A stretch of DNA of 64,000 nt from Bacteroidales bacterium (GTDB lineage Bacteria; Bacteroidota; Bacteroidia; Bacteroidales; Bacteroidaceae), in the NCBI GenBank assembly GCA_030528885.1, contig JAUMXY010000005.1:6924-70923 (forward strand), given 5' to 3'. Position numbers and translations under genes: made by a program. This document shows positions 8,428 to 25,693 of the stretch, in pieces (the stretch's first letter is position 1; each line of letters opens with the position of its first letter). The notes under the pieces were generated by a model. The model was given only the letters and a program-made list of their open reading frames with translations, searched no databases and had not been told where the DNA came from.

Positions 8428-8428
8428 A

Positions 8429-9550: not shown

Positions 9551-9587
9551 TAATGTAACATAATCTAAGTTCTTAAATAAGAGTTTT

Positions 9588-9944: not shown

Positions 9945-10148
9945 AATTTTTGTTCTATTTAATCATTTTCCTACTCGTATCGTTTTTCGGTTCCACGCCT
10001 TTTTGCCTGTATGGTCAGCAGTCTATACTATTATTTAATCCATTCTATTTAGTCACTCACTGCTATTCTATCTATTTTCATTTCCTGTTTCAATATGGTT
10101 CGGATAATATGCACAGCAGCAACAGTGACAAGGATGGAGGCTGTCTTC

Positions 10149-10682
10149 TTAATCAATATAGTTCTTATAATATCTTTCGACTACTTGATGAATATATTCG
10201 TTGTCCTTCTTGCTGCACTTACGTACATATTTATTGAATTCCGTCTCTTTCCCGTATTCCAATTTGCGAAGTTGGCGAAGACGTTCCATTGCATTCTTAT
10301 CATCGATGCGATTGTAATGCAGATCGAAGAAAAGTTGTTCCACATCGTGGAAATAGTTCTGATAGAACATGCCAATGGCATCCAACTTACTCAACTCTTC
10401 CTCACTTTGGAGGAAACGAAGAATGTCGGACTTACAGGACAATATCGCCGTCATTATCACCAAGGCAGCGGGAGAAATCCATGATTCATATTCTCTAAAG
10501 AAGGTTGCTCCAATGCCCACAAAGAGCAACATGCTGTCCACCCATCGGTTCCACTTCCTCTTGCGATCTGTGTAAAGCAATGCCTCATTGAAGTATGTGA
10601 GTGCCTTCTTGAGTTCTTCCCACAAAATGTTCTCGGTTGCACTTAAGCTGTCAGCCCCTTTAACCGCCTTTTCTTTTGCCAT
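10149..10682 (-). CDS. two-TM helical protein (possibly SLATT-like)
   Basis: ORF 10149..10745 trimmed to MAKEKAVKG. Two adjacent TM helices (WVDSMLLFVGIGATFF, ISPAALVIMTAILSC) are flanked by helical regions. The SLATT resemblance is by pattern only. Confidence 0.4.
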   Translation of the reverse strand: MAKEKAVKGADSLSATENILWEELKKALTYFNEALLYTDRKRKWNRWVDSMLLFVGIGATFFREYESWISPAALVIMTAILSCKSDILRFLQSEEELSKLDAIGMFYQNYFHDVEQLFFDLHYNRIDDKNAMERLRQLRKLEYGKETEFNKYVRKCSKKDNEYIHQVVERYYKNYID

Positions 10683-10932
10683 ATTTAAATTGTTTGACTG
10701 GGTATTTCCTTTTTCCAACTTTATCGTATCTGATGATTTTACCATTAGGTAATAGTATCTCTTTTAGAACAATTTCTTTTATCAATCCACGTTTTCTTAT
10801 CTCTTTAAGATACCTCAGATTATTCCTTCGCCTCTGTCCCCCTCTTACTGGAGGAGGATCTATCGGAGGTATATATGGAACAGCACATACAATATTATAC
10901 TTATTTACCGAAGTCATCACTTTTCTTTCCAT
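10660..10932 (-). CDS. small basic hypothetical protein
   Basis: 90-aa ORF, Lys/Arg-rich, with a 23-nt overlap onto the downstream ORF. No recognisable family. Confidence 0.3.
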   Translation of the reverse strand: MERKVMTSVNKYNIVCAVPYIPPIDPPPVRGGQRRRNNLRYLKEIRKRGLIKEIVLKEILLPNGKIIRYDKVGKRKYPVKQFKYGKRKGG

Positions 10933-11033
10933 CTTGTAATATTTACATTTTATTATTTCCTTTATGAAATTCGATGCAAATATACAATATATATTATATA
11001 AACAAAAAAAAAAAAACGATATTTTTCAATTTA

Positions 11034-11066
11034 TTTGCATAATTTACTTATTAATCATTAATTTTG
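11034..11066 (+). promoter_or_regulatory. Bacteroidetes-type promoter (-33 TTTG / -7 TAATTTTG) for the SPT-like gene
   Basis: TTTG at 11034-11037 and TAATTTTG (TAnnTTTG consensus) at 11059-11066, 32 nt upstream of the ATG at 11098. Confidence 0.5.
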
Positions 11067-11097
11067 CAGCATTTAATTAAACTAATTATATACAATT

Positions 11098-12336
11098 ATG
11101 ATTAAAGAAAATAAATTTCTATCATTGAAAGATTATGAATTCTCAATGGAAGTGGACGCCGCAACCAGAGCAGAGGCATTCCAAGACTACATCCACCAGA
11201 TGGAACAGTTTGAAACAAAACCCTATTGGGTCATGGCAACAAGTGGCGTCGGGGCAAAAATGAAACTTGATGGCTGTGATGATACCATTTCCGCATACAT
11301 CTCCAATGACTACCTTGGGATGTCCCAACGTCAGGAAACCATCGAAGCGGGAATTGAAGCCCTCCGCAAGTACGGCACAGGAGCATGTGCTGCCCAAGTC
11401 ATTGGTGGCTATCTTGACATCCACAAAAAGCTTGAAGGGGACATAGCCGATTTTGTGGGGCAAGAGGATGCCATCCTCTTCTCATCGGGTTTTGGCGCCA
11501 ACACGGGGTTGCTCAATGCCATCTTGGGAAAGAATGACATCGCCTATGTGGATTCGTACATCCACACCAGTGCAACCAGCGGACTACGGGGCACCAACAT
11601 CAAACACATCGGGCACAATGACCTTGAATATCTTGACATGATACTGGGCAAGGAAGAGGGGGCATACAAGACACGCCTGGTCATCATCGATGGTGTTTAC
11701 TCTCAGAATGGCGACTTGTCTAAACTACCGGAATACATTTCTGTGTGCAAGAAGCATCACTGTCTGTTGATGATGGACGATGCGCATGGCATTGGTGTAA
11801 TGGGGAAGAACGGGCGAGGAACAGCAGAACATTTCGATTGTCTGGGGAAGGTGGATATTATCACTGGAACATTCAGTAAGTCCTTCGGGTGTGTCGGGGG
11901 CTTTGTGGCGGCATCCTCCAAGATGATAGAATACCTGAGGTTCTATGCAGACAGCAACGTTTTTTCCGCTGCCATCACACCGCAGGTGACGGGCTCCATC
12001 CTGAAAGCCCTGGAACTGATTAAGACAAGGCCTGAAATCAGAAAGAAGCTTTGGGACAATGTGAATTATCTACGGAACAGATTGCAAAGTGCTGGCTTTG
12101 ACATAGGGCAATCCGAGTCTCCAATCTTCCCCGTTATGGTCAGAGACAATGAAAAGGTATATAGAATCGCTGACATGTTGCAGAAAAAGCGTATCTTTGC
12201 AAGCGGAATCGTTTACCCTGCCGTCAGGACAAAGGAGGCGAGGATCAGAATCAGCCTGCTCGCTTCACATGATACAGACCAGCTTGAACAGCTTGCTGTT
12301 GCACTGGAGGAGATAAGGGATGTGATTCCATTCTAA
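11098..12336 (+). CDS. PLP-dependent alpha-oxoamine synthase (serine palmitoyltransferase / KBL / BioF-like)
   Basis: 412 aa with DDAHG and the PLP-lysine motif GTFSKSFG. Class-II aminotransferase architecture. Confidence 0.85.
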   Translation: MIKENKFLSLKDYEFSMEVDAATRAEAFQDYIHQMEQFETKPYWVMATSGVGAKMKLDGCDDTISAYISNDYLGMSQRQETIEAGIEALRKYGTGACAAQVIGGYLDIHKKLEGDIADFVGQEDAILFSSGFGANTGLLNAILGKNDIAYVDSYIHTSATSGLRGTNIKHIGHNDLEYLDMILGKEEGAYKTRLVIIDGVYSQNGDLSKLPEYISVCKKHHCLLMMDDAHGIGVMGKNGRGTAEHFDCLGKVDIITGTFSKSFGCVGGFVAASSKMIEYLRFYADSNVFSAAITPQVTGSILKALELIKTRPEIRKKLWDNVNYLRNRLQSAGFDIGQSESPIFPVMVRDNEKVYRIADMLQKKRIFASGIVYPAVRTKEARIRISLLASHDTDQLEQLAVALEEIRDVIPF

Positions 12337-12365
12337 GAGCTTGCACCAACAACCATAATTAGAAC

Positions 12366-13070
12366 ATGAGTACGGAAAAGAAAACACGCTACAGGCGTAC
12401 AAAGGCAGACATCACGGAAGACATCAGGAAAGCCGCCGTTGACCAAGTGATGAAACGTGGCTTTTCGGCATCATTGGTGACGGAAATCATCAAGAAGGCA
12501 AAAATAGAGCCTCCTGTCTTTTACCATAGATACAAAAACATTGACGAATTCTACAGCGAGTTTGTCAAGGGGTGCGACTATTGGTTTTCGGATATCGCGG
12601 ACAAAGCCATGAAGGGGAGCGACAATCCCAAAGAACAGTTCCTCGCCCTCATGGAGGGATTGCAGGAAGCCCTGAAGGAAAAGTCGGTGATGCACGAGCT
12701 GTTACGTTGGGAAATTGCTGAAGGGAATGACACAACCAAGAGGACTGCCACACTCCGAGAAATGTTCACCCTGCCTCTGGCGGACAAATACAATGCACTG
12801 TTTGCAGACACGGGCATCGACTTTGTGGCACTTGCCTCACTCTTGATTGGAGGGCTCTATTATCTGCATCTCCATAGAGAACGTTCCACATTCTGCAACA
12901 TTGACATGGAGAAGGAGGAGGGGACCCAACGCATCGAAAAGGCAATAAAGACCTTCACCAACATCATCTTCTCCTTTCTCGAACGCAGGGACACCAAACA
13001 AGACGTGGCAGAAAGGATGAGAGCCAAGGGTATCGACGAGCAAACCATCAAGGAGTGCCTGTTGATATGA
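12366..13070 (+). CDS. TetR/AcrR-family transcriptional regulator
   Basis: 234 aa with an N-terminal TetR HTH (IRKAAVDQVMKRGFSASLVTEIIKKAKIEPPVFYHRYKN). Confidence 0.8.
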   Translation: MSTEKKTRYRRTKADITEDIRKAAVDQVMKRGFSASLVTEIIKKAKIEPPVFYHRYKNIDEFYSEFVKGCDYWFSDIADKAMKGSDNPKEQFLALMEGLQEALKEKSVMHELLRWEIAEGNDTTKRTATLREMFTLPLADKYNALFADTGIDFVALASLLIGGLYYLHLHRERSTFCNIDMEKEEGTQRIEKAIKTFTNIIFSFLERRDTKQDVAERMRAKGIDEQTIKECLLI

Positions 13071-13072
13071 TT
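12772..13072 (+). repeat. direct repeat, left copy (functional 3' end of the TetR gene)
   Basis: Aligns by eye with 23629..23927. I count about 28 differences over ~300 nt, including one 1-nt indel. Confidence 0.85.
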
Positions 13073-13449
13073 CATGGCTTCATATTACGTTTTATACATG
13101 TAAAACTGAAATCTCTATATGTCTTACTAAGGGAAAAACGCAAATCATTTATTATAGCAAAAAGCCATATCTGTTTTCACGGCTCCGGGCACAGCTCCGG
13201 TCAATACAATGGCAATGACAAATAGTTGTGAAAACACTTTCTCGCTTTTAAAGACAATTTCGTGATTCACTCTTAGCTGAAAAACAAGTAGCTATGATTC
13301 ACTTTGAATCGTAAAGAAGTTCCCTCAAATGTATGATCTGATTATTATCTGATAGAGAATTAAAAATCGATACTTAATAACAAAGATGAAGGAAGTAAGA
13401 GTTGACTATTCCCATGAGCATGATGTGAGAATAAAATCAAATTTGAAAT

Positions 13450-16212
13450 ATGGAGAATTTAAGTAAAGCGATAAAAGCTCTTTTCGTAAAAATGAGCGGA
13501 GATGAGATTCTAAAACATGCAGGATTCTTACCTCTCGAGAAGACAGATCACATAGAAAATGACAATCAGAGACTTGATTCAAACATACCAGAGTCTATTG
13601 TCATAAACAAACTATTACAAGTTGATTTTGAAAGCACTATCGACCAACTCAATATTGTTTATCAAATAATACAAGACAAGTGGGTCATCAAAGACAAATC
13701 AAATTTAGACTTACAATTTCGTAATAGTGATTCGGTCTTTAATGCGCTTCTTCATTTTGCATCCAAATGTCTCACTGTAAAAGATGGAGAGCCTCTTTGT
13801 CAATATCGCACATTATTACGTTGGCATTTAATTGCAGGACAAGTTGGTGAAGATCTTCTAACGACAGCATTTATTGCATCGCATGATATAAAACGAAAGA
13901 AAAGGAGAAGTACATTCGATTGGAGTGCTTATTTGGGACATGACTGCAAAGAACTAAATTATATTCTTGAGAAACCGATGGCAGAATTGCACATGCACCT
14001 GAAAGGTTCTTCATTCAATTTTGACTTGAGTTGGTCATGTCTGATGAACCATATTGGCATTATGCAAAGCCGTTTTGAATTAGAACATCCTCTTCACCCA
14101 TATATTGATCCCGATAAGACTCTTTATGAAAAAGTGAGGAGAGCTGCAGCTATTAGATACTATTTGGCTGTTGCTGTTGGTTGTGTTAAAGATGACCTGT
14201 CATTAGCACAATTATATTCTTTTTTGAACGACAAAGTGGATGAAAAAAATCTTCCGAAAAAAAACGAAGAAAGAGAATTTAGGAAAAATGAATGGAGAAT
14301 TAAAAACGAAGAAAGAAAATTTAGGAAAAAGGAATTGGGAATTGAAAAAGAAGTAGATATCCTTGAAAAAATAGACAAAAGTCGCGAGAAGACGAAGAGA
14401 TTTATCAAAGAAAAGTTTGAACAGGCTAAAATCAATCAACATTTTAGTGATCAATTAACGGATAATGATATTATTGATTACATCCCCGTGCTGCATTATG
14501 AAAGTGAGCCTATTGAAAACAAGGTCTTAGCTCCAGAAAGAGCTTTGATGTATTCTGTTTTCTCTGCTATTTATGGGGGTAATGAGGAGTCATCTAATAT
14601 TGCGACATTATTCTATGCATATCTGGCATATAAAACATATTTCAGAAATGCGATTATACAGTTGAACGAGAGGGTTGGTTTTGCCAATTTTGCCAGTTAT
14701 GAGGAAAGAAAGACCGACTATATCCTTGAGGATTATTATCATTTACTGTATAAAGCAGCCATTGAAGGTTTCTTGGAAAAAGGAACAGACAGATATATTG
14801 AAGCAAGAGTTGTTCCCAAAGATACAGAAGAAGGCATAGTTAGATCACTTTTTGACTATTGTAAAGAAATCGATGAAAAATACAAGAAGAAGTACTCGTT
14901 TATCTTTCATTTCATCAAACAAAGAGATGAACCTAAAGGAGAAGGCTTCTATCGACATTATGATTTACGACATGCAATAAAAAAACAGGCTTATGCCATC
15001 TATCAGTTTAGAAGTAATAGAAAAAACTGGGAAGGTGACAACAACTTGGTAGGCAAGGTCGTTGGTTTGGATGCTGCAAATTCCGAGGTGTTCTGTAGAC
15101 CAGAGGTCTATGCACAGGCTTTCAGGTTTCTAAGAGGACACGAGATAACAATTGATGAAGAGACGGAAGAATATCCTAAAGATCTTAATATTACTTATCA
15201 TGTAGGTGAGGATTATATGGATATTGCTGATGGATTGCGGTCCGTGGAAGAGGCTATGCTTTTCTTAAACTTAGGAAACGGAGACCGTCTAGGACATGCA
15301 CTTGTACTTGGTACTGATGTTAGAAGTTATTATGAAAAGCGTTATTATACCATATGCGCAAGTAAACAGGTCATATTAGACAATTTAGCATGGTTGCATC
15401 ACAAATGTATTCGTTTGACAGGTTACACACAACTATGTGGATGGCTGGACATCATGTTTTTGAAATATTTTGATGATATTTATGGGAAGCATGATGAGAA
15501 GGAGGATAATATCATTGATTTGTTTTTTACCGATGAAAAGAATAAAAATCTTTCAGACGATATCAATGACTATTATCTGTCTTGGTTGTTGAGAGGTGAT
15601 TCACCCGTCATTGGAACGGAATTGGCTAATGAAAATTTAGAAAGAATGGTCTCAACAATTGACAGGCAATGGGTATATGCGGGTATGAATCATCAAGTTT
15701 GTGCAGAGGTCGCTCTAAAAAATGAACGTGCCCGAGATTTATTCGATGCTTACCATTCTTACAAATATGCAAAAAAAGGATATTTAGGAGATACACTGAC
15801 TATACCACCTATGTATAGAGACGAATGGTATATGCTTTTGGAGAAAATACAGCAGCAACTTCTCGAAAAGGTCGAGAAAAGACACATCGCTATTGAATGC
15901 AATCCTTCATCGAATTTTAAGATTGGTGAAATCGAACGATATGACGAGCATCCTATTATTAAATTCTTTAACTATGGTCTTAAGACTCCATACCCTCGGC
16001 ATGATATTGCAGTTTCTATCAACACGGATGATCAGGGTGTTTTTGCCACCTCTTTAGAACGTGAATATTCGCTCATGGCTTTGGCGATAGAAAGAAATCG
16101 TCATAAGGAATATGAGAATTCTCCAAGAGCTATTTGGGAATGGCTTGATAGAGTAAGGGAACTTTCTATGGAACAAAGGTTTAACAAAATAAATCAACAG
16201 AAAAATGGATAA
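13450..16212 (+). CDS. large adenosine/AMP-deaminase-fold metallo-hydrolase (RdrB/Cad1-like catalytic core, novel N-terminus and insertions)
   Basis: 920 aa. Catalytic motifs: ELHMHLKGS (His181/His183), TYHVGEDY (His584, Glu587), GDRLGHAL (His616), IECNPSSN, SINTDDQGVF (Asp860/Asp861). The gene is visibly AT-rich. It carries a K/E-rich insertion containing a 14-aa tandem repeat. Confidence 0.8.
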   Translation: MENLSKAIKALFVKMSGDEILKHAGFLPLEKTDHIENDNQRLDSNIPESIVINKLLQVDFESTIDQLNIVYQIIQDKWVIKDKSNLDLQFRNSDSVFNALLHFASKCLTVKDGEPLCQYRTLLRWHLIAGQVGEDLLTTAFIASHDIKRKKRRSTFDWSAYLGHDCKELNYILEKPMAELHMHLKGSSFNFDLSWSCLMNHIGIMQSRFELEHPLHPYIDPDKTLYEKVRRAAAIRYYLAVAVGCVKDDLSLAQLYSFLNDKVDEKNLPKKNEEREFRKNEWRIKNEERKFRKKELGIEKEVDILEKIDKSREKTKRFIKEKFEQAKINQHFSDQLTDNDIIDYIPVLHYESEPIENKVLAPERALMYSVFSAIYGGNEESSNIATLFYAYLAYKTYFRNAIIQLNERVGFANFASYEERKTDYILEDYYHLLYKAAIEGFLEKGTDRYIEARVVPKDTEEGIVRSLFDYCKEIDEKYKKKYSFIFHFIKQRDEPKGEGFYRHYDLRHAIKKQAYAIYQFRSNRKNWEGDNNLVGKVVGLDAANSEVFCRPEVYAQAFRFLRGHEITIDEETEEYPKDLNITYHVGEDYMDIADGLRSVEEAMLFLNLGNGDRLGHALVLGTDVRSYYEKRYYTICASKQVILDNLAWLHHKCIRLTGYTQLCGWLDIMFLKYFDDIYGKHDEKEDNIIDLFFTDEKNKNLSDDINDYYLSWLLRGDSPVIGTELANENLERMVSTIDRQWVYAGMNHQVCAEVALKNERARDLFDAYHSYKYAKKGYLGDTLTIPPMYRDEWYMLLEKIQQQLLEKVEKRHIAIECNPSSNFKIGEIERYDEHPIIKFFNYGLKTPYPRHDIAVSINTDDQGVFATSLEREYSLMALAIERNRHKEYENSPRAIWEWLDRVRELSMEQRFNKINQQKNG

Positions 16213-16597
16213 AATATTTTTAAAAGAGTGTTTCTTGCAGAAGACAAATCAGTATGAAGCATTAGACGTATTATCTAAAGATGAAAATGATTTGAGACTC
16301 GGTTCGTTTCTATTTCTTTGTTTTGACGAGAAAAAAGATAAGGAGAAAAAACTAGTTTTTGCAAAAACAAAAGTTAAAGATGGAAATATAGAGGGTGAAG
16401 AAAAAACAATAGGCATCCTATCTGAAGAAGATGCGAAAGAAATTAAGCCGTATCTTGAAGTGGGAAGAATGGACCTATATGAATGTCGAATTAGTAAATT
16501 TGACAAGGATGGAGATGAAAACAAAAGGTTTAGCATTGCCATTTTCATAGTATCAAAGGACTACGTCAATCGACAACAAGGAAAGGCCAGACGCTAA
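16205..16597 (+). CDS. small partner protein, possibly HIRAN-like
   Basis: 130 aa. The start overlaps the deaminase stop by 8 nt (ATGGATAA). The C-terminal half, TIGILSEEDAKEIKPYLEVGRMDLYECRISKF...RFSIAIFIV, resembles the HIRAN pattern (vGyl....a..l.plld.g.....), but the NpyD signature is absent. Confidence 0.45.
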   Translation: MDKIFLKECFLQKTNQYEALDVLSKDENDLRLGSFLFLCFDEKKDKEKKLVFAKTKVKDGNIEGEEKTIGILSEEDAKEIKPYLEVGRMDLYECRISKFDKDGDENKRFSIAIFIVSKDYVNRQQGKARR

Positions 16598-16621
16598 TCC
16601 TCAACATAATGGTGAGGGAGC

Positions 16622-18838
16622 TTAATCTATCAAAGCTTTAAGGTCTTCCAATGAAAGATGCTCGTTTGCAGCATTAAACTGCTCCGTTGTCTGACGTTTA
16701 CGGTTCTGTAGAAGGAGTATTTTCTCCTCGACAGTGTCTTTACAAACAAGGCGTAGCGCTAAAACATTCTTCTTCTGACCGATGCGATGGGAACGTCCCA
16801 TTGCCTGGTCTTCGACTGCGGGATTCCACCAGTCATCTAAAAGGATGACACGATCGGCTGCTGTCAGGTTGAGACCTACGCCCCCGGCCTTAAGACTTAT
16901 TAAAAAGACGGTTATTGATGAATCTGACTGAAACCGTTCTACAGGTGTCTTTCTGTCACGGGTGTCACCATAAAGTGTGACAAATCGGATACCTGCTTCC
17001 TGAAGTTTAGATTCCATCTGATGGAGAGCTGTTACAAACTGAGAGAACACCAATACCTGATGGCCTTCTGAACGGAATGCGTCAATATAATCAATAGCAA
17101 CAGGAAATTTTGATGGAATGCAGGCCTGACGTAACCGTAGAAGTCCTTCTAATGCAATACTACTGAGACGACCACTCAAACCTGTTGCAAAAGCTTGAAG
17201 GATAGCAGTGTGGATGTTTTGATAGTTCTTCCGTTCTTGATCTGTCAATTCAATAAAGATAATTTTTTCTATCCGTTCAGGTAAATCCGAAAGAACCACT
17301 TGCTTCTCCCTGCGTAGAATAAATGGCTTCAGCAGTTTACTGGTTATACTTATATAAGTTTCAGGCTGGGTCTGAACACCTAATCTGTGGAGGCGTTGGT
17401 ACAAACTTTTCAGTGGTGGCATCAGTATCATGAAATGAGACCATAGTTCTTCTATAGAATTTTCAATGGGGGTGCCAGTAAGTATGATTTTATGCTTGCA
17501 GTCAAGTTTGCTTATTGCCTGGTATTTTTTTGTCTGTCTATTTTTTACAATCTGGGCTTCGTCAATGATAATTGTATCGTAATGATGATTTATATAGTTT
17601 TCAAGATGGATACGTAGCATGTCATAGCTAACAAGTGTGAGCTGAGGCATCAATTGTGGAGCAAAACGGAGGATTTCATTCTGCCAATTATATATTAAAG
17701 AGGTTGGAGCAATTATAAGATGTTGGACTTGGACATCCAGACAACAGAGGTGGGCAATGACTTGAAGTGTCTTGCCAAGTCCCATTTCATCAGCCAGTAG
17801 ACAACCATGATGGTTCTTACGTTGCTGTTGGAGCCAAAAAACGCCATCTTCTTGATAATTTCGGAGGGTTGCAAGGATTTTTTTATTAATTGTATCTTTA
17901 ATAAATTGTCGTTCCGATGACGAAAGAGGAACGTTTTCCTGATATAGCTGAAGTACATCGGTAGTGCCCCCTAATAGTTTGATAGTTGTTTTATCATCGC
18001 TTTTCTCTGCATCTTTACGTTGGAAGATTGTAATATGACCATCACTTTCATGATAATTGCGACTGTTAAGATAGCCGTCAAGCAACTGCTGGGCAAACTC
18101 TGAAGAGGATATGTCCTCTGTTGAAAACCAAATAATACCCGAAGGTTCACGATGAGCATAAGCTTTTGACAACTTCTGTTCTTGGTTGGGTACGTAAAGA
18201 GTCCACCCATTGTTTACGAATTCTTGAAGTTGTTGGGTATCTGGTTCATCCAAATTCAAGGTTGCAGTGGTTGCATCATAAGAATCTCCAAGTTTTGACA
18301 ATAAAGAAGACTCCGCGTCGTAATCTCTTTGGAAAAGCTTGTTGTCTGAAGTAACAAATGGGAGTGAAGAAAAAGTGGGATAAAAGGAGCTAAGTGCATC
18401 AGCATAGCGCAATCTTACCTGAAGGTTGTGATGCCAAGAATTGATATTACTGATATATAATTCTCCTCCGATGAGTCGTCCAATCTTAATTTTGTCAGTT
18501 TGATTGTTTGAAGGTAGTTTAATTTGCCCTTTTTTTATGCTGCCTTTGGGAGCAGATTCTACAAAATTATATGGATGACATATGATGACATGCTGAACAA
18601 GCGGATTTTCTAAAAGACGGTGAGGAATACGAAATGGCTGAGTCGATAGTCCTGCGTGATTAAGTAAGGAAATAAGTTCATTGGACGTAGAAATCCCTGA
18701 TTTCTGAATGTCACTGAGTGTTACTTTGCGCTGAAAAGGGGCAATAGTTTTGCTATTCCCTTCCAGGCATACTTCTACACGTATAGCCGGAATCGGTTTG
18801 GCATATTGTTCGGAAATGCAAAGCAGGCGGTAGGACAT
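16622..18838 (-). CDS. SNF2-family ATPase/translocase with uncharacterised ~330-aa N-terminal region
   Basis: 738 aa. Motifs: LADEMGLGKT (I), IIIDEAQIVKN (II), LTGTPIENS (III), VLVFSQF, GGVGLNLTAADRVILLDDWWNPAVEDQAMGRSHRIGQ (V/VI). Starts 4 nt after the rSAM stop. Confidence 0.9.
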   Translation of the reverse strand: MSYRLLCISEQYAKPIPAIRVEVCLEGNSKTIAPFQRKVTLSDIQKSGISTSNELISLLNHAGLSTQPFRIPHRLLENPLVQHVIICHPYNFVESAPKGSIKKGQIKLPSNNQTDKIKIGRLIGGELYISNINSWHHNLQVRLRYADALSSFYPTFSSLPFVTSDNKLFQRDYDAESSLLSKLGDSYDATTATLNLDEPDTQQLQEFVNNGWTLYVPNQEQKLSKAYAHREPSGIIWFSTEDISSSEFAQQLLDGYLNSRNYHESDGHITIFQRKDAEKSDDKTTIKLLGGTTDVLQLYQENVPLSSSERQFIKDTINKKILATLRNYQEDGVFWLQQQRKNHHGCLLADEMGLGKTLQVIAHLCCLDVQVQHLIIAPTSLIYNWQNEILRFAPQLMPQLTLVSYDMLRIHLENYINHHYDTIIIDEAQIVKNRQTKKYQAISKLDCKHKIILTGTPIENSIEELWSHFMILMPPLKSLYQRLHRLGVQTQPETYISITSKLLKPFILRREKQVVLSDLPERIEKIIFIELTDQERKNYQNIHTAILQAFATGLSGRLSSIALEGLLRLRQACIPSKFPVAIDYIDAFRSEGHQVLVFSQFVTALHQMESKLQEAGIRFVTLYGDTRDRKTPVERFQSDSSITVFLISLKAGGVGLNLTAADRVILLDDWWNPAVEDQAMGRSHRIGQKKNVLALRLVCKDTVEEKILLLQNRKRQTTEQFNAANEHLSLEDLKALID

Positions 18839-18842
18839 AGGC

Positions 18843-20177
18843 TTAAAACTGATAATAATAGAGATAACTGTCTATCATCTTGCGCTCTAATTGCGAAATG
18901 AATTCCTGTGAGCATTTTATCTGTAGCATCGGACCTTGATATCCAATCAATTTGCCATTGAAATTACAATCTTCTATTCGACAACCTCCACAGCAAATAT
19001 ATCGCAGGTGACAGGCTTGACATGGATGGAGATTGTCAACAGAGGTAATGTTATGAAGGAGTTTGCCCTGCTCTATGAAAGGTCTTATTGACTTCCCTTT
19101 TATATTACCATAACTTTCTACTTCTGATAGCCGATTACAATAGTACACCTCTCCATCAGCTCCGATAGAAATACCTCCATATCCACAATTTCGAGTTATA
19201 CTGTTAGGCTCATGTCCCTCTATAAAGTTCGAATATTGAGCATTAGGATTGACTGCACGTTCTATCTCCATCACTCTATTATAAAAAGAACGATTTTCTT
19301 CCTCCGTATAGTTTGTATTGCGTCCTTGTAATATCTTCTTACTAAGTTTAAAAAATACGGGATATTTGCACTGTTCCTTAATAACCTCTACCATCTGATG
19401 GTATTTTGGAGCAGCATCCTGCTGAAGGTTTTTAAAGGTAAAAGTTGTAGCTACGGAAGTCCTAATTCCTGCATTGGCAAAACGAATGACGTTGGCTACT
19501 ATTTTATCAAAGTGTCCTGCTCCTCGAACTTTAGCATTTGATTGCTCATCGAAACCGTCAATGCTAATTTGAATCTCACTAATGTATGGAGATAGCTTAT
19601 TAATTGATTCTTCTGTCCAAAGGATACCATTAGAAAGTACGGTTGTAGTTAGCCCTTGTTGATGGCTATGGATAAGAATGGTTTCAAAATCACGGTTCAT
19701 TAAGGGTTCCCCTCCGGTAAAGGTCACATTTACCCCCCCCTGGTGGCGGAAGTCCGTCAATATGCGTAGCCATTCTTCTTTGGTAAGCTCATTTGCCAAT
19801 GGTTTGCCAGAGCGCATAAAACAATGGTCACAACTGAGATTACAGGCATTTGTAAGATAACAATTAATCTGTTGGGTTACATCATTCGGTATTGGAGATG
19901 GTGTTGCATTAGTGTTGCCAAACTCCCGCGCAGTAATAGCTGCGAGAAGTCGTTGGAATTCATTTTGCTTGTCAATATCTGTAATTAGCGGGAAGACATC
20001 TCCAATGGTTTTTCCTGTAAGCAGACCCTCCAAAATTATTTTTTGAAAATCGGTTATAACTAACCAGTTAGCTGTAGACACGGCTACTACCAACCATCCC
20101 TCCTTGCAACTTCTGAAAATCACATCTTCAGGAAAAAAGAATCTGTCTGTGCTATTGAGCGTTCCGCTATGTTTCAT
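18843..20177 (-). CDS. radical SAM/SPASM peptide maturase with N-terminal PqqD-like RRE
   Basis: 444 aa. CNLSCDHCF (CxxxCxxC) and the C-terminal CQACHLRYICCGGC SPASM cluster. The N-terminal ~90 aa (EDVIFRSCKEGWLVVAVSTANWLVITDFQKIILEGLLTGKTIGDV) fits a PqqD/RRE pattern. Confidence 0.85.
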   Translation of the reverse strand: MKHSGTLNSTDRFFFPEDVIFRSCKEGWLVVAVSTANWLVITDFQKIILEGLLTGKTIGDVFPLITDIDKQNEFQRLLAAITAREFGNTNATPSPIPNDVTQQINCYLTNACNLSCDHCFMRSGKPLANELTKEEWLRILTDFRHQGGVNVTFTGGEPLMNRDFETILIHSHQQGLTTTVLSNGILWTEESINKLSPYISEIQISIDGFDEQSNAKVRGAGHFDKIVANVIRFANAGIRTSVATTFTFKNLQQDAAPKYHQMVEVIKEQCKYPVFFKLSKKILQGRNTNYTEEENRSFYNRVMEIERAVNPNAQYSNFIEGHEPNSITRNCGYGGISIGADGEVYYCNRLSEVESYGNIKGKSIRPFIEQGKLLHNITSVDNLHPCQACHLRYICCGGCRIEDCNFNGKLIGYQGPMLQIKCSQEFISQLERKMIDSYLYYYQF

Positions 20178-20190
20178 ATCTTAATTCTTA

Positions 20191-20225
20191 AAAATTGTGT
20201 TCCATGGTCTTGGACCGTGGAACAC
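20191..20225 (-). terminator. hairpin + T-run between precursor ORF and rSAM gene (attenuator / partial terminator)
   Basis: Arms 20197-20209 and 20213-20225 pair at 12 of 13 positions around a 3-nt loop. On the sense (minus) strand the hairpin is followed by AATTTTTAAG, 19 nt before the rSAM ATG. Confidence 0.5.
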
Positions 20226-20277
20226 AACCCAATTGGGTAACTATACCGTGATATGAACTTAATCCTTGATCAGGGGA

Positions 20278-20388
20278 TTAGTTCTTGTTCACATCGCAGT
20301 TCTTAAAACAGTACATAGCACCTATGCGCTCTGTCTTTCCTGCTTCTTTTGTCTCCCAATTGAACGAAATTGTGAAAATCTCTTTCAT
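20278..20388 (-). CDS. candidate RiPP precursor peptide (36 aa, below the ORF-track cutoff)
   Basis: My own translation gives MKEIFTISFNWETKEAGKTERIGAMYCFKNCDVNKN. It lies 38 nt downstream of the M42 stop and immediately upstream of the RRE-rSAM gene. The C-terminal segment YCFKNCDVNKN carries 2 Cys plus Asp/Asn. Confidence 0.45.
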   Translation of the reverse strand: MKEIFTISFNWETKEAGKTERIGAMYCFKNCDVNKN

Positions 20389-20426
20389 TTCGAAAACTTT
20401 AATTTTTTTTTAATTAATAATGTTAC

Positions 20427-21482
20427 TTAACTCAATTCCTGCAAAAACTCTGTTAAAAGAGCTATTGCATTATCGGCATCTTCTAATGAAACCATCTCAT
20501 TTGGAGTGTGCATATATCGGCAAGGTATGCTAATCAGCCCAGTCTTAATACCTTTTCCAGCCACTTGAATCATTCGGGCATCGGTACCTGTTGGACTTGC
20601 AATTGCTTCTACTTGATAAGGGATTTTTATCGTCTCAGCTATATTTGTGAATTTCTGATTAAGACCCTTGTTCATATTAGGTCCCATCGGAATGACGACA
20701 CCTTTACCGAGCCGAATGTCACCATCCTTTGCTGGAGACATGGTGGGGTAGTCAGTGGCATGAGTAACATCAATTGCAACACCTATTTCTGGAAGAATAG
20801 CTGCTGACACCATCTGTGCACCTCTAGCTCCCAGTTCCTCTTGAACAGTGGCGACCAAGTAGATATCACAATCTGTTGATATTGTCTGCAAATTGTTTGC
20901 CAAACCTATAAGTACTGCCAAACCTATCTTGTCATCAAGCGATTTTGATAGAACAAAAGTGTCAGTCAAGATGGTAGGCATTGTTGCATACGTTGCCACA
21001 GACCCAACTTGAACCTTGGACAACGCATCTTCTTTATCTTTGGCGGCAATGTCAATCCACAAGTCTTCTGGGCTAAGATTCTTACCACAATCCGGTTCGC
21101 CTTGCAAGTGAATAGGTTTTCGTCCGATAATGCCAGTAACGAGTCCTTGTTTTCCTTGTATATAAATGCGTTGACCTGGTAGTAAGTTTGTATCGATACC
21201 ACCAATTTGATTAAAATACAAGAATCCCCTGTCGTCAATGTAACTAATCATGAAACCCACTTCATCAGCATGAGCCATAAACATTATCTTAGGGCCATTA
21301 CCTTTCTTATGGGCGATACAATTACCATTAACATCGCAATTAACCTCGTCGACATACGGCATAACCGTTTTGGCAAAGAACTCTATTAACTGCTCCTCGC
21401 TTCCTGACGGACTTGCCATCAGCAAACTCTTATGTAATATATCCTTCAGCCAAACATCCATAGAGTTCAAATTTGGATACAA
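20427..21482 (-). CDS. M42-family aminopeptidase (FrvX/CelM-like)
   Basis: 351 aa with MAHADEVGFMI and DDKIGLAVL plus metal-binding His/Asp/Glu blocks typical of M42. The true start may be MDVWLKDIL at 21461. Confidence 0.8.
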   Translation of the reverse strand: MYPNLNSMDVWLKDILHKSLLMASPSGSEEQLIEFFAKTVMPYVDEVNCDVNGNCIAHKKGNGPKIMFMAHADEVGFMISYIDDRGFLYFNQIGGIDTNLLPGQRIYIQGKQGLVTGIIGRKPIHLQGEPDCGKNLSPEDLWIDIAAKDKEDALSKVQVGSVATYATMPTILTDTFVLSKSLDDKIGLAVLIGLANNLQTISTDCDIYLVATVQEELGARGAQMVSAAILPEIGVAIDVTHATDYPTMSPAKDGDIRLGKGVVIPMGPNMNKGLNQKFTNIAETIKIPYQVEAIASPTGTDARMIQVAGKGIKTGLISIPCRYMHTPNEMVSLEDADNAIALLTEFLQELS

Positions 21483-21746
21483 AGTTACGAAATAATTTTA
21501 TTTCTCAAACAAAAACTTTACAAAATAGTTACTTTAAGTTTCTATTATACGAATATAGTCAGCTTGCTCGATTTAAGAACATAAAAACTGAGGTATTTAG
21601 ATTCTGTTAGAAAATGAATCGTATTCTATGTTAAATTAGAGTACATACACAAACCACCTTGCCCTTTCTCATTCTGACCATTACAGGTTGACCCACTGGA
21701 ATCAACAATAATTCGCAACGTTCTGACAATATTCGAAGCCCCCCTC

Positions 21747-22307
21747 TTACGTTTTTTTATGATAATCCCCTCTTAGTTCTTGCAAATAGGTGGCTTCTTC
21801 TGGGGAATCGGCCCTATCTGTTGGAACCCGTCCCGTGTACCCCACAAAGTGAGCCATCATTTTCTCAACATGTGGATGATCCAACTGACCTTCATTGATT
21901 AAATCATCTAGCTCATCAACATCAAGAGAACGTAGTTGTTGGAAGTCAACAAGAAGTAATGGGGCATCTATAACTGGGTTGGGATCAAAGAAAAAATATC
22001 GTCCCACATTTGAATTATGAATAAAATTGGTCAAATAATTCACAAATGATTCCCAAGCCTTTTTTGTCAGTCCCCCCTCTTCATTCGCTGATTCTACTTT
22101 TCCCTTGTATTCTTTCGTAGACATCAAAGTTTCCTTAGCCGGAACAAGGGCGGCAACAATTAAGAAACTTAATTTATCATGCTCGAAATCACAAGCGTTT
22201 GATAAAACAATACTCAACACCGGATTTTCCTCACCTCTTCCCCAATCAACCCCACTGACAATACTGCCTTGAGTTATGTTTTCCCGTGCCCCAACAACCC
22301 ACTGCAT
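21747..22307 (-). CDS. hypothetical protein (186 aa), third gene of a 3-gene operon
   Basis: Starts 2 nt after the upstream stop. The N-terminal GSIVSGVDW...VLSIVLSNACDF...LIVAALVP is only vaguely MazF/PemK-like. No firm family. Confidence 0.4.
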   Translation of the reverse strand: MQWVVGARENITQGSIVSGVDWGRGEENPVLSIVLSNACDFEHDKLSFLIVAALVPAKETLMSTKEYKGKVESANEEGGLTKKAWESFVNYLTNFIHNSNVGRYFFFDPNPVIDAPLLLVDFQQLRSLDVDELDDLINEGQLDHPHVEKMMAHFVGYTGRVPTDRADSPEEATYLQELRGDYHKKT

Positions 22308-22308
22308 A

Positions 22309-22623
22309 TCAATAATCCATTTCTATAATGTCACCGACACTCTTATTGCTGTATGCTTTCTTAAACCATTCCGACTTGGCCATCTGGGCGTAACGCTTAC
22401 GGAAATTTTTCTTTTGGGGACTCACATACCTGACCTCTTGTACATAAGTCGTTGAATAATCATAGGTCTGCACTGTGACCACACTCACCATAGCCTGCTC
22501 ATCACGAGCAAGGGCTGGAGTCATGGTCATTGACAAAGCGCCAGCCAATGCTGCCATCTTAAAAAAAGTATTCTGGCTGCTGCTGGTCATTGTATTTTGT
22601 TCCTTATTATCGCTCATTCTCAA
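22309..22623 (-). CDS. small secreted protein (signal peptide ...ALSMTMTPALA)
   Basis: 104-aa ORF; the likely start MTSSSQ at 22590 gives 93 aa. Overlapped or abutted by both neighbours. Confidence 0.4.
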   Translation of the reverse strand: MRMSDNKEQNTMTSSSQNTFFKMAALAGALSMTMTPALARDEQAMVSVVTVQTYDYSTTYVQEVRYVSPQKKNFRKRYAQMAKSEWFKKAYSNKSVGDIIEMDY

Positions 22624-23242
22624 TCAGTCTTTTGATAATTCTTTCTTCTATTGTTTCGATTGAACTTTCTATTAACGATTTAGCCTCTTCTCCTATCGGC
22701 ATTCCACTTAAAAATTGGTTATGATGATGATTGATATTGGCAAAAATTCCATTTCGTATTCCACGACGTGGCTCAATTTCCACATTTGCAACTTGGGTCT
22801 CATTTATTCCAAGTCTCAAATTCAGTTTGTTGCACATCTGAAAGGAAGACGCATCTGATAAAGAGGGGTTAATAAAATGATTCCATAACCAAACTTCCGA
22901 ACTTTCGTTTATATCCGTCCACTGATATTCACTGTTAATACCAAAAGAAGAAAATCTGTTCCCATGGATAAACTTGTCAATTTCTGGCTGTAAAGCCTCC
23001 ATATATTCCTGCAAACCATTTCTATCTTTCGCTTTTATAACAAGTCTTGTAGGACTTAACACCATCATGGGAAAAGGTTTGTTTTCTATCGCTACAACAT
23101 ACCCATCTGGAGTAAATCCATTAAACGTATCATAAGGCAGACCAAACAAATCTTTCGCAAATCTATTATCAAAGTTTGGTAATACAGCCAAAGGCTTCTC
23201 CCAAACTCCCACAAAGGAAATGCTAAAACTGGTTTTCTCCAT
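22607..23242 (-). CDS. hypothetical protein (211 aa), first gene of a 3-gene operon
   Basis: Clean ORF with no recognisable motifs. Confidence 0.4.
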   Translation of the reverse strand: MEKTSFSISFVGVWEKPLAVLPNFDNRFAKDLFGLPYDTFNGFTPDGYVVAIENKPFPMMVLSPTRLVIKAKDRNGLQEYMEALQPEIDKFIHGNRFSSFGINSEYQWTDINESSEVWLWNHFINPSLSDASSFQMCNKLNLRLGINETQVANVEIEPRRGIRNGIFANINHHHNQFLSGMPIGEEAKSLIESSIETIEERIIKRLIENER

Positions 23243-23628
23243 TATTTACAATAATCTCTAAATTTCGTGCAAAAATAGTTCCTTTTTTTTATTCGAGAAA
23301 ATTTTTTGAGAAGGAATTAAGTATTTTTGATTTAAAATCATGTTTTTTTGTATTTCAGAATTGTTTTTACCTGTTTACGAGAAAACTGGGATTGTTTATA
23401 TGCAAAAATCATCAAATATGTAGAAAAATATCTCCATGGATAGGAATTCTGAACGAAGAACTGGGTAAGGTATGATAACTTATCGTGTCATCAGGGTTAA
23501 GGGAAAACGTGGGCTATGTGTAATATTAAACAAAATTGAGTGACATCGTGTAATGTTAAAGGTTGAGAGAAGCTGACACAGTGTGGAGATGAAATAAAAC
23601 AATTTAACACCTTGTGACCAACAGACAC

Positions 23629-23927
23629 ATGCCTCTGGCGGACAAATATAATGCACTGTTTGCAGACACGGGCATCGACTTTATGGCATTTGCCTCACTC
23701 TTGATTGGAGGGCTCTATTATCTTCATCTCCATAGAGAACGTCCACATTCTGCAACATCGACATGGAGAAGGAGGAAGGAACCCAACGCATTGATAGGGC
23801 AATAAAGACCTTCACCAACATCATCTTCTCCTTGCTCGAACACGGGGGCGCCAAACAGGATGTGGCAGAAAGGATGAGAACAAAAGGTGTTGACGAGCAA
23901 ACCATCAAGGTGTGCTTACTAATATGA
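23629..23927 (+). pseudogene. direct repeat, right copy: displaced or decayed 3' fragment of a TetR gene
   Basis: Encodes ...PLADKYNALFADTGIDF(M/V)A(F/L)ASLLIGGLYYLHLHRER. A 1-nt deletion follows, after which the shifted frame still reads MEKEEGTQRIDRAIKTFTNIIFSLLE...DEQTIKVCLLI. No 5' part of the gene is present. Confidence 0.8.
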
Positions 23928-23980
23928 TTAGAGCATTCAGTACTGCCCCAATCATATCTCCGTGCTATTTCAACATGCCT

Positions 23981-24466
23981 TTACGCGTTCAAAAAGAGTT
24001 GTCTGTTCAAAAAATTGTGAACAAATCGTATTTTCTGAACAAAAAAAAATGGAAGTATAGTTATTGCAATATCACCAACAAAACAAGACTCTCCTATAGC
24101 CTGTACTTTATTAGGAATCTTTACTTCTTTCAAACTCTTGCAACCGTTAAAAGCATAGCTTCCCAACGATGTAACATCTTCACCTATTGTCAATGTCTCC
24201 AGTGATGTACAACCTTGGAATGCACAATCACCTATTTGACCATTATTCGCAACAGAAAACAAAGAGCTCTGATAGGGGTAAACCTTCATGTCCTTCTTAT
24301 CCCACATATCCCCAAAACTATATTGGTCATTGGCTACATAGTTAATTCTTCCTGCCAGATACTCGTAACCTTCTGGTGGAGTATTTGTCAACCAAATAGT
24401 TTTTTCTGGAATGCACAGATTTACGCCTATTTTAAGTACACCAGCTCCAATTGTCATGGAAGTCAA
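23981..24466 (-). pseudogene. BspA-type leucine-rich-repeat protein fragment
   Basis: Has DCAFQGCTSLETLTIGEDVTSLGSYAFNGCKSLKEVKIPNKVQAIGESCF. The upstream in-frame sequence hits a stop, the C-terminal tail is degenerate, and there is no signal peptide. Confidence 0.5.
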
Positions 24467-24847
24467 GCTGGAGCAGTATGTGACTTTCAGAATATTCCGT
24501 TAGGGCCTGGCGACCAGGACTCTTTGGACAATATTGTAGTTAAGGTATTTATTAAAGGTATGGTTTCCTTTGAAGCTGTAAAAAAAGACATAGACATTAA
24601 CAAGTACTTCTTTAAAGATAGAAGTGAATGTATAGATGTTATTTATTCTTTTGATAAATATGATAAGAAGATAAAGTCAATTGAGTTCGACAGACACGAT
24701 ATCAATGCCAGGTTGGTTTTCTTAGAGTCAGATATCAACGAGGAAGTTCCTAAAGAACTTGTCGTGGAGAATATATCTCTACCTCTGAAGAAATACGAAA
24801 TGTTTACCCGGAAAGGAAGAAAGTAACGCTAAACCTGAGAAGAAAAA

Positions 24848-25324
24848 ATGAGGATTGCTTCGGTATTCATATTCTCGTTGATGATTCTGTCGTCTTGTTC
24901 CCATAAGGACGAGGCGATAGAACTATCACGGGATTTCTTTGCTTCATTATCCGACTCCACCTATGGAAAGACCAATGACTTCTATCCCGATTATGACTCT
25001 TTGGGCATTGAAGCAAAGTCAGACATTGTGGACATCGAGGCATCAGATGTTACCGAAAAGAACGACACTGCCACCGTCCGTTGCTATAACAACTATACCA
25101 ATAGTGAGGGAACCTTCATGCAGGATAGCGTTACCCTGTTCATTACAAGGAACGAGGATAAGCAGTACTACATCTATGATTCGAAGGGACTCATTGTTAT
25201 TGACAAGGAACTGGCGTGGTTCGGAAAGGTTACTGGTGCCTTTGGCAAGAAACAGACCAATGACCAGGCATTAGCAAAACGTATCGAGCAAGTCAGGAGC
25301 ATGATGTGGGGACAAATACATTGA
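24848..25324 (+). CDS. lipoprotein, possibly the 5' part of a disrupted gene
   Basis: 158 aa with lipobox MILSSC. It is followed by frame-shifted coding-like sequence. Confidence 0.45.
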   Translation: MRIASVFIFSLMILSSCSHKDEAIELSRDFFASLSDSTYGKTNDFYPDYDSLGIEAKSDIVDIEASDVTEKNDTATVRCYNNYTNSEGTFMQDSVTLFITRNEDKQYYIYDSKGLIVIDKELAWFGKVTGAFGKKQTNDQALAKRIEQVRSMMWGQIH

Positions 25325-25693
25325 AGTCCGTGCGGAACTGACTACCAAGGTGAAGATTGCCAACTGGTCATAGGAAACAAGCTATAGCGGTGATGCACAT
25401 GGAGAGGGAAGGGTTGTCAACATCTGGACTATTCCATATCGGGTGTGAAATACCATGTGAACTACTATGACCGCAAGGGCGACTTTATGGCAGAGGATAA
25501 TGGAAGCATCAGCAAGACATTATATCCAGGCGAGAAATACAACTTCACCTTCTGGAGTTCCAATGCTAAATATCCGAATACTGCAAGTCTCAGACTTGAT
25601 TTCTCGGACAATATGGTTTTGAAGATTATTAAGGAGCAGACCTATACAGGCAAGGAGTTCCAAGAATACTTGAAACGCCAAAAGTCCAAATAA
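25325..25693 (+). pseudogene. frame-disrupted continuation (stops and frameshifts) ending in an 82-aa ORF
   Basis: Reading EVRAELTTKVKIANWS* then ETSYSGDAHGEGRVVN.., followed by the GTG-initiated ORF at 25445..25693. Coding-like sequence is interrupted. Confidence 0.3.

Follow-up and report, generated by a model that had tools for sequence, protein, structure and literature searches.

How did 10,557 bp of AT-rich DNA come to lie between the stop codon of a TetR gene and a second copy of that gene's own 3' end? The question is raised by a locus in a Bacteroidales bacterium (GenBank assembly GCA_030528885.1, contig JAUMXY010000005.1), analyzed here within a window of 64,000 nt, the whole stretch from position 6,924 to 70,923 of the contig's forward strand, to which all coordinates below refer. 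An intact gene for a TetR/AcrR-family regulator of 234 residues (12366-13070, + strand; Pfam TetR_N, PF00440, 25.0 bits against a cut-off of 24) is followed by an insert at 13073-23629 and then by the duplicated TetR 3' end. A reading made earlier from the letters of the window, referred to below as the sequence-only reading, treated the repeats as the limits of one discrete cassette, brought in by an element that inserted into the 3' end of the gene. The evidence assembled here makes it probable that the locus is instead an accessory island of composite build, situated in a recombination hotspot just 3' of a conserved TetR gene of Prevotella-like Bacteroidales, assembled in at least two steps and carrying defence cargo.

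The duplicated TetR end and the site without the insert

Pairwise and global alignments and a repeat finder define a direct repeat with a left copy at 12772-13072 (301 nt, + strand), comprising the last 100 codons of TetR plus 2 nt, and a right copy at 23630-23929 (300 nt, + strand); the start-to-start distance is 10,857-10,858 nt. Identity extends over 273 of the 301 aligned columns (90.7%), leaving 27 substitutions and one 1-nt deletion, which lies in the right copy at the equivalent of 12884 and breaks the frame. Homology sets in abruptly at 12772/23630 and ends in both copies 2 nt past the TGA stop codon. The right copy has no 5' gene part, and the repeat finder detects no further TetR-like sequence in the window beyond the intact gene and this fragment. 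The sequence-only reading had placed the right copy at 23629-23927, within 2 nt of these limits, and its count of about 28 differences including one frame-breaking deletion is exact; the missing 5' part and the abrupt onset of homology, now at 23630, are likewise as it described them. A chance origin of the repeat is excluded because the 64 kb contain one other long repeat, an unrelated 300-nt pair at 79% identity, the remaining repeat families being no longer than 55 nt.

Two loci among those fetched for comparison (L numbers) carry the site without the insert, the arrangement that the sequence-only reading had proposed to look for in relatives. L006 (Logan SRR24653719, 1.95 kb) matches the window over 11302-13072 at 96.8% identity and then passes directly into a homologue of 23930-24044. 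L025 (JGI Ga0310786_10001968, a 32-kb contig found through a 24-mer of the right flank) matches 9812-13072 at 91.2% and continues into the same 115 nt. Because TetR runs directly into the flank that starts at 23930 in these two independent metagenome contigs, 13073-23629 is a genuine insertion relative to related genomes. The ancestral order is aminotransferase (11098-12336, + strand), TetR and the native downstream flank of 115 nt (23930-24044, + strand), which stands directly 3' of the intact TetR stop codon in both contigs.

A second variable boundary lies immediately to the right of the duplicated end. Homology to the window stops at 24044 in L006 and L025 and at 24074 in L029 (ENA ERZ27256908), a contig that shares the right junction. 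Past the 115-nt flank L025 has genes of its own, encoding AbiEi, an AbiEii-like protein, a PP2C and an IS4-type transposase. The window itself continues into a leucine-rich-repeat (LRR; BspA/HupY-like) gene fragment (23981-24466, - strand), recognized by translation and a weak NCBIfam LRR adhesin match, which marks the start of further variable DNA and past 24044/24074 is shared with none of the three loci.

A TetR fragment that lacks its 5' part might also be what is left of a separate TetR paralogue that had nothing to do with the intervening genes. The fragment is about 91% identical to the neighbouring gene, as against 70-72% to the TetR orthologues of the 82-86% class; it has in common with the left copy ten lineage-specific third-position states that set both apart from L006 and L025; and directly 3' of it stand exactly those 115 nt that in L006 and L025 come after the single intact TetR. 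Descent from a second paralogue is thereby effectively refuted already.

The substitution pattern points to what the right copy is. In a four-way site table of left copy, right copy, L006 and L025, the changes unique to the right copy are the deletion and 18 substitutions (7 synonymous, 11 non-synonymous), distributed over codon positions as 7:4:7 and spread evenly over the 300 nt, with equal density before and after the crossover point described below. The changes unique to L006 fall at third positions in 13 of 14 cases, a pattern that indicates purifying selection and differs from that of the right copy (Fisher test, p = 0.0015). Since the right copy adjoins the native flank without a break, has changed as neutral sequence does and is frameshifted, it is best read as the displaced 3' end of TetR, an unselected pseudogene remnant in neutral decay. 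To this extent the two empty sites, and a remnant decaying beside its native flank, agree with the sequence-only proposal of an insertion into the gene's 3' end that left the displaced original behind. In L029 the remnant has the same deletion and nearly all of the same decay, so the duplication is older than the divergence of the window from L029. No second TetR fragment occurs within 10 kb downstream of TetR in ten other loci, and the remnant is therefore specific to the lineage of the window and L029.

The intact copy has a peculiarity of its own. All seven of its unique changes are synonymous and all fall within 13001-13064, none in the preceding 229 nt (P = 4.5e-5), and at all seven sites the remnant keeps the state of both empty sites. 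The divergence between the window and L006 is concentrated in the same place, at 12 of 72 sites in the TetR tail against 45 of 1699 elsewhere (p = 1.3e-6). The same states as in the empty sites are found at 13004, 13025 and 13034 in all of five more distant TetR alleles (L001, L002, L005, L014 and L020), and at 13001 in four of them. These comparisons suggest that the intact TetR carries a short foreign patch (13001-13064, + strand) at its extreme 3' end, that a crossover at about 12996-13000 probably left it there, and that the remnant preserves the native tail. In the first 229 nt both copies represent one allele, and whatever separates them there is due to decay of the right copy. An element that brings along a replacement 3' end, as had been suggested, thus finds a counterpart in the last ~70 nt or less of the gene, which look imported, and not in the 300 bp of the repeat. 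Since at most those ~70 nt look imported, an element with a diverged 300-bp replacement end fits poorly. The whole right copy was also considered as a diverged attachment site (attP) borne by an element, and this was rejected, as its differences fit neutral decay and are of even density across the crossover.

The same sites bear on the possibility that the island is ancestral and that the empty sites of L006 and L025 are secondary, produced by homologous deletion between the TetR repeats. A 300-bp repeat at 90% identity can mediate such a deletion and would regenerate an intact TetR with its native flank, as seen in both contigs. Of the 18 substitutions specific to the remnant, however, L006 has none and L025 one (G at 12940), and the 1-nt deletion is in neither. 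Moreover, the outgroup alleles at 13004, 13025 and 13034, and mostly at 13001, side with the empty sites and the remnant and not with the intact copy, the 98% TetR cluster is abundant on many contigs, and other lineages have entirely different cargo downstream. A secondary origin of the empty sites is thus quite unlikely.

Less plausible again is that the assembly joined two strains into a chimera at the TetR repeat. The window probably derives from a metagenome assembly, and its left junction is without independent confirmation. The two copies differ at 28 positions, which leaves the assembler no occasion for collapse or cross-joining, and the right junction with the remnant is reproduced at 98.3% identity in the independent sample L029. 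An artefact of this kind is accordingly a very remote prospect, and the insertion is taken as real in what follows.

Composite build of the insert

The insert is a composite of three parts: an AT-rich spacer, a six-gene cassette and a three-gene cassette, the two cassettes occurring separately elsewhere. The spacer (13073-13363; 291 bp, 34% guanine plus cytosine, GC), whose left edge is the left insertion junction, matches no fetched locus. The six-gene cassette (13364-21514, 8.15 kb) recurs with unrelated flanks in two contigs. In L007 (ENA ERZ27280586) the match to the window covers exactly 13364-21514, at 94% identity, with unrelated sequence on both sides. The match of L033 (an IMG/VR contig), at 90.9% identity, extends to 21515, after which the contig has an LRR gene and two open reading frames (ORFs) of 409 and 448 residues; by inspection of their sequences, these two resemble tyrosine integrases and are candidates for such enzymes. 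The third part (21515-23629, 2.1 kb, - strand) holds the three-gene operon with its upstream region, and its right edge is the right insertion junction. L029 is 98.3% identical over 21523-24074, that is, over the three-gene operon, the TetR remnant and the flank, and the 54 nt that it has left of 21523 find no counterpart anywhere in the window. In L030 the three-gene operon occurs at 86.5% identity over 21693-23491 in an unrelated chromosomal context, without TetR. A breakpoint within the 9 bp of 21514-21523 is common to three independent comparisons; the one at 13364 comes from a single comparison. What the sequence-only reading had taken for one discrete cassette between the repeats is hence two independently occurring cassettes with breakpoints at 13364 and at 21514/21515-21523. 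Its suggestion that the cassette might occur elsewhere with other flanks applies to both parts separately; the whole insert with the same ends was not found elsewhere as a unit.

Base composition sets the insert apart from the genes to its left. GC content is 37.8% in 13073-23629 against 48.1% in 11098-13072 (aminotransferase to TetR), and GC at third codon positions is 0.29-0.37 in eight of the nine enclosed genes scored (the gene of a 36-residue peptide was left out of the scoring), the exception being a 104-residue ORF at 0.50; the flank genes have 0.55-0.63. The enclosed genes are in this respect AT-richer than the aminotransferase-TetR flank, as had been claimed, though AT-richness extends beyond the brackets, with 36.5% GC in 23930-24044, 40% in 24045-25400 and 35.8% in 8000-11097. 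Because these adjoining stretches are likewise AT-rich, composition alone does not define the island.

If the insert moved by itself, a recombinase should be looked for among its genes. Pfam, NCBIfam and PADLOC detect no recombinase or integrase domain in any enclosed ORF, also at lenient thresholds. The three-gene operon (21747-22307, 22309-22623 and 22607-23242, - strand; 186, 104 and 211 residues) has no family match. Its 211-residue protein lies beside the right junction and has 43 homologues with an invariant NHHH motif; the predicted model has high confidence (predicted local distance difference test, pLDDT, 90.6), finds no structural neighbour in the PDB above a TM-score of 0.34 in a fold search and shows no recognizable recombinase fold. 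The earlier statement that none of the enclosed genes is an integrase therefore agrees with the domain searches and with the model. The window has no tRNA or tmRNA, so the site is not an attachment site of the tRNA type, and an Rfam scan over 9-27 kb detects nothing inside the island. Among 13073-13449, 21483-21746 and 23243-23629, searches for terminal inverted or direct repeats or common motifs return matches of at most 14 nt (E about 0.07 or higher), and short matches near the junctions were rejected as attachment-site arms on the same grounds. Promoter and terminator scans at both junctions give counts within the shuffled expectation. In viral contigs scanned for TetR relatives and for both junction sequences nothing was found. 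A megablast against a plasmid collection gives no match for 11000-25500 and one 146-nt match for 26500-47000; with at most this match, the window does not correspond to any known plasmid.

Part of this picture would be accounted for by a self-mobile element of the e14/icd type that integrates by a site-specific recombinase of its own, has attL and attR in the repeats and supplies a diverged replacement end. The geometry is that of icd and icdC, where the intact gene and a C-terminal pseudogene stand at opposite ends of the insert; related contigs have the empty site; the direct repeats duplicate the 3' end of the target gene at 90.7% identity; and the last 64 nt of the intact TetR are foreign-like. 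On the other side, no enclosed ORF has a recombinase match, and the 211-residue protein is without a recombinase fold; the insert consists of two separately occurring cassettes, and the whole block is not found elsewhere; the first 229 nt of the repeat are the same allele, which leaves no diverged attP arm, and no terminal repeats or arm motifs rise above chance. A self-mobile element is thus an unlikely explanation.

On the composite-island reading, the duplication would go back to recombination inside the terminal part of TetR, for which two routes are conceivable. Either circular DNA bearing a piece of the TetR 3' end entered by a single crossover (Campbell-type), or homology guided a crossover on the left while the right end was joined illegitimately. 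As no recognizable recombinase is encoded in the island, we infer that the host's functions, or functions acting in trans, would have done this. At least two steps are envisaged. The three-gene operon and the remnant would have been in place before the window and L029 split, and the six-gene cassette, whose tight limits are the same in three other contexts, would later have been placed, or exchanged, between TetR and the three-gene operon. The synonymous patch in the TetR tail is a plausible scar of this exchange.

The cargo and its predicted role

The enclosed genes are those listed by the sequence-only reading: a deaminase, its small partner, an SNF2 helicase, a radical SAM enzyme, a peptide, an M42 peptidase and three unassigned ORFs. 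The first gene of the six-gene cassette encodes an RdrB-like adenosine deaminase of 920 residues (13450-16212, + strand; PADLOC RdrB, E = 2.7e-29; NCBIfam RdrB, NF041744, 151 bits). Its best PDB matches, in colinear alignment, are the 'Adenosine deaminase' chains of 8fnw (E = 5.6e-25), 8fnv and 8hr7, which we take to be RdrB of RADAR. The motifs HMH, HVGED, GDRLGH and NTDD are intact, align to RdrB and to ADA, and are invariant in 26 homologues. No island protein has a PADLOC match to RdrA. A relative of the deaminase at 34% identity (Aureibacter pAT1) stands in an RdrA-RdrB-SLATT arrangement with RdrA detected next to it, and one at 24% identity (Cetobacterium) is preceded by a 1027-residue protein that has no PADLOC match. 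Within the deaminase gene, at 14260-14353, a 42-nt tandem repeat (2.2 copies, 88% match) encodes a KNEEReFRKxE repeat; this segment is variable or absent in homologues and partly explains the length of 920 residues in comparison with about 895.

The small partner (16205-16597, + strand; 130 residues) is always found downstream of the deaminase and is conserved in six of six contexts. Three of six homologues give a weak, sub-threshold HIRAN signal (best E = 6e-4); a PDB-sequence profile search returns no match, and a single-sequence model is unusable (pLDDT 45). A HIRAN-like partner would fit a DNA-end-binding accessory to the SNF2 helicase. That helicase (16622-18838, - strand; 738 residues) has Pfam SNF2-rel_dom and Helicase_C domains, a helicase core that PADLOC places near DpdE and ZorD, a match to PDB 1z63 (E = 1e-61), and about 320 N-terminal residues without assignment.

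Adjacent genes resemble a maturation module for ribosomally synthesized and post-translationally modified peptides (RiPPs). A radical SAM/SPASM peptide maturase of 444 residues (18843-20177, - strand; Pfam Radical_SAM and Fer4_12) has NCBIfam matches to sactipeptide maturases of the StsB/SkfB type, all equivalog cut-offs for maturases being missed. In the PDB it is closest to SkfB (6efn), a thioether-forming maturase, and to the radical SAM protein 5wgg, presumably CteB. Beside it lies the gene of a putative precursor peptide of 36 residues, MKEIFTISFNWETKEAGKTERIGAMYCFKNCDVNKN (20278-20388, - strand), which is also called in L007, L008, L011 and L026. The peptide core ER(I/V/L)GAMYCFK(N/R)CDVNxN is kept down to 47% deaminase identity, so that, as in RiPP clusters, a maturase of this family adjoins a conserved Cys-containing candidate precursor. 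The sixth gene encodes an aminopeptidase of the M42 family (20427-21482, - strand; 351 residues; Pfam Peptidase_M42, E = 1.8e-90).

The six genes stay together over considerable divergence. Besides L007, the set is present in L008/9, L011, L013 and L026-28 at 79-47% deaminase identity, with no RdrA in any locus examined. Identities for deaminase, small protein, SNF2 helicase, radical SAM enzyme and M42 peptidase are 79/54/75/72/78% in L008, 65/39/58/61/66% in L011, 52/31/48/47/56% in L013 and 47/27/43/49/50% in L026. The five proteins co-diverge in parallel, as would be expected of six genes inherited as a block from 94% down to 47% identity. A single strand carries all six genes in L013 and L026-28, ordered M42, peptide, radical SAM, SNF2, deaminase, small protein; the window, L007-9 and L011 have the deaminase pair turned round, which gives a convergent arrangement. 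That the set has been kept through this rearrangement speaks for one functional unit. Their neighbours elsewhere encode domains associated with defence or mobile elements, namely AAA_21 with RloB, AAA_15 with DUF4276, and a VapE-type primase.

The most likely role of the cargo, judged from these homologies and neighbourhoods, is anti-phage defence. In PADLOC the cargo of the window yields generic matches to RdrB, SNF2 and a viperin-like radical SAM protein and no complete known system. The six-gene combination has neither a PADLOC 2.0 model nor an NCBIfam equivalog, and the literature searched contains no relevant paper on a deaminase combined with SNF2 and radical SAM proteins, or on RdrB in Bacteroidetes; a set with a RADAR-type deaminase and without RdrA appears to be undescribed. 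A working model is a RADAR-type deaminase effector that would be controlled by a nucleic-acid sensor, formed by the SNF2 helicase and the HIRAN-like protein, and by a peptide that the radical SAM enzyme would crosslink and the M42 peptidase would trim. In its full form the proposal is tentative and falls short of being probable: that 13364-21514 is a single undescribed anti-phage system of Bacteroidales, that its RdrB-like effector has swapped RdrA for the SNF2 helicase, the HIRAN-like protein and the processed peptide, that the peptide gates the deaminase as cofactor, inhibitor or signal, and that the unit is traded at the TetR hotspot without a recombinase of its own.

Several observations weigh against the composite island with defence cargo and need to be set beside the evidence for it. 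The left junction (13072/13073 with the 291-bp spacer) is seen in the window only, and no second contig confirms it. The flank shared by the empty sites measures only 115 nt before the genomes diverge again. L029 supplies just 54 nt to the left of 21523, which demonstrates a differing junction and leaves absence of the six genes from that contig's genome unproven. The recombination mechanism is deduced, and neither a donor arrangement, in which TetR with the 13001-13064 states leads into 13073 and onward, nor a circular form was found. On the side of function, the deaminase, at 151 bits, stays far below the 800 that assignment to the RdrB equivalog NF041744 requires, PADLOC holds no model for the six-gene set, the argument for defence is drawn solely from homology and neighbourhood, and the three-gene operon, with no Pfam, NCBIfam or PADLOC match, offers no functional clue at all.

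With these points counted, the composite island remains the probable reading, and its main value is the cargo, a sharply bounded unit of 8.15 kb that joins a RADAR-family deaminase, a RiPP-type maturation module and an SNF2 helicase. Should the unit prove to be a defence system, the RADAR effector could be driven by a different sensor module, and a ribosomally made, radical-SAM-modified peptide would be placed inside an immune pathway.

The hotspot, its surroundings and known counterparts

The TetR gene is one of 486 homologues, and close relatives at 98% identity occur on many contigs; an exact look-up finds the protein sequence of the window's copy not on record. In species-representative genomes the closest TetR loci are those of Prevotella sp. 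and of Cryptobacteroides metagenome-assembled genomes, and the clusters of the deaminase and of the 211-residue protein have members named 'Prevotella sp.' and 'Bacteroidales bacterium'. Upstream of TetR lies a conserved backbone gene for an aminotransferase of the alpha-oxoamine-synthase family (Pfam Aminotran_1_2, E = 7e-49), and the two genes are found together in L002, L006 and L014-L025. The sequence-only label of serine palmitoyltransferase (SPT) is not established for this enzyme. It scores 366.5 bits against a cut-off of 640 for SPT (NF047600), 333 against 460 for KBL and 327 against 426 for BioF, and is below the cut-off for ALAS as well; by NCBIfam score it is about equally close to the SPT, KBL and BioF models. 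In related loci the aminotransferase adjoins an epimerase/GLF/glycosyltransferase cluster.

Downstream of TetR the picture changes from locus to locus. The TetR orthologues of L014-L024, with 82-84% amino-acid identity, still have the aminotransferase and the sugar-epimerase/GLF/glycosyltransferase cluster on their upstream side, and their 3' cargo varies among an HATPase_c protein plus two other genes, TIR_2 together with Peptidase_U49, and a three-gene set of the DUF2326/MC6/SMEK type with a 1920-residue helicase. With the AbiE set of L025, at least four different cargo sets follow orthologous TetR genes. Pfam domains at these other loci include AbiEi/AbiEii, TIR_2 and DUF2326/MC6/SMEK, and in L005 TetR is followed by another radical SAM gene. 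Because TetR orthologues carry different downstream cargo with defence-associated domains, the 3' side of TetR has the character of a recombination hotspot. In L010 (ENA ERZ27317945 k141_114130), a TetR allele 98% identical to that of the window loses homology at the equivalent of 13049, 21 nt before the stop codon, and runs on as a 331-residue fusion into GC-rich DNA; either the TetR tail has a further recombination breakpoint here, or the contig was assembled as a chimera.

The whole neighbourhood to the right of the TetR locus is accessory. The block at 26562-46830 holds conjugation and mobilization genes (DUF4099, Toprim/DUF3991, DUF4134, M23 and glucosaminidase lysins, SSB and a MobV-type relaxase), in which no integrase was recognized. 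Two ArdC-type genes are found in the 26.5-47 kb region, and the block includes an unusual 835-residue fusion of ArdC-N, a zincin peptidase and MutS domain I (36737-39244). Further right are a resolvase-like gene with a GmrSD-type restriction enzyme (50689-54139, the latter at 52205-54139) and an IS4/IS5-type DDE transposase (63248-63973), which add to the accessory and defence content of the window.

On the left, a gene at 10149-10745 (- strand) is 93% identical in L025 and gives a weak SLATT_4 match (28 bits against a cut-off of 55). Although some RADAR operons include a SLATT protein, this gene is part of the backbone and lies outside the island. At 9964-10033 (- strand), upstream of an NVEALA-like small gene and likewise outside the island, Rfam scores the DUF805 RNA motif (RF03081) at 45.2 bits (E = 1.5e-5), below its gathering score of 51.1. 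The unrelated 300-nt direct repeat mentioned above (2843-3142 and 7874-8173) is part of two paralogous clusters, each with a protein of ~200 residues, a TolB-like six-blade propeller and an NVEALA-type small protein; a 936-residue transglutaminase/lectin protein is encoded between them.

Comparison with known systems places the locus in several contexts. The RADAR anti-phage system is defined as two proteins, the RdrA AAA+ ATPase and the RdrB adenosine deaminase (PMC9994260). The 920-residue deaminase resembles its counterpart there in being colinear with 8fnw and 8hr7 and in keeping the metal-binding and catalytic motifs, and its 34% relative sits in an RdrA-RdrB-SLATT operon. Here, in contrast, there is no RdrA, the equivalog score is 151 of 800 bits, and in every context examined, from 47 to 94% identity, the deaminase is linked to the SNF2, radical SAM/SPASM, peptide, M42 and small-protein genes. 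RiPP clusters of the sactipeptide and ranthipeptide type (SkfB, StsB, CteB) similarly pair a radical SAM/SPASM enzyme with a short precursor that has an invariant two-Cys C-terminal core, with a peptidase nearby. They differ from the present set, in which transporter and immunity genes are missing, the maturase cut-offs are missed, and a helicase and a nucleotide deaminase stand alongside.

The closest geometric parallel is the e14 prophage in the icd gene of Escherichia coli K-12, which leaves an intact icd and an icdC pseudogene (PMC13626634; Hill et al. 1989, cited there). In both cases the 3' end of a gene reaches the insert, a C-terminal pseudogene lies at the far end, and the replaced tail has synonymous changes. 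e14 encodes its own recombinase and excises after SOS induction, whereas the island encodes no recognizable one, is composite, and has a replaced-looking tail of only the last ~70 nt or less.

The island as such is ordinary, an instance of accessory cassettes stacked without an integrase at a gene-end hotspot in gut Bacteroidales, and with exact junctions, two empty sites and a datable remnant the locus is useful as a marker of cargo turnover in Prevotella-like populations. Hotspots of variable cargo flanked by core genes are described in E. coli, where hotspot #37 is often without a detectable mobile element (PMC10121019). The TetR locus resembles them in its conserved flank gene with varying defence-domain cargo, in its tightly bounded recurring cassettes and in the frequent absence of mobility genes. 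It differs in that only one conserved flank, the TetR side plus 115 nt, is seen in the fetched loci, in its setting in Prevotella-like Bacteroidales with the 3' end of TetR as anchor, and in the 300-nt duplication of that anchor, which marks one event.

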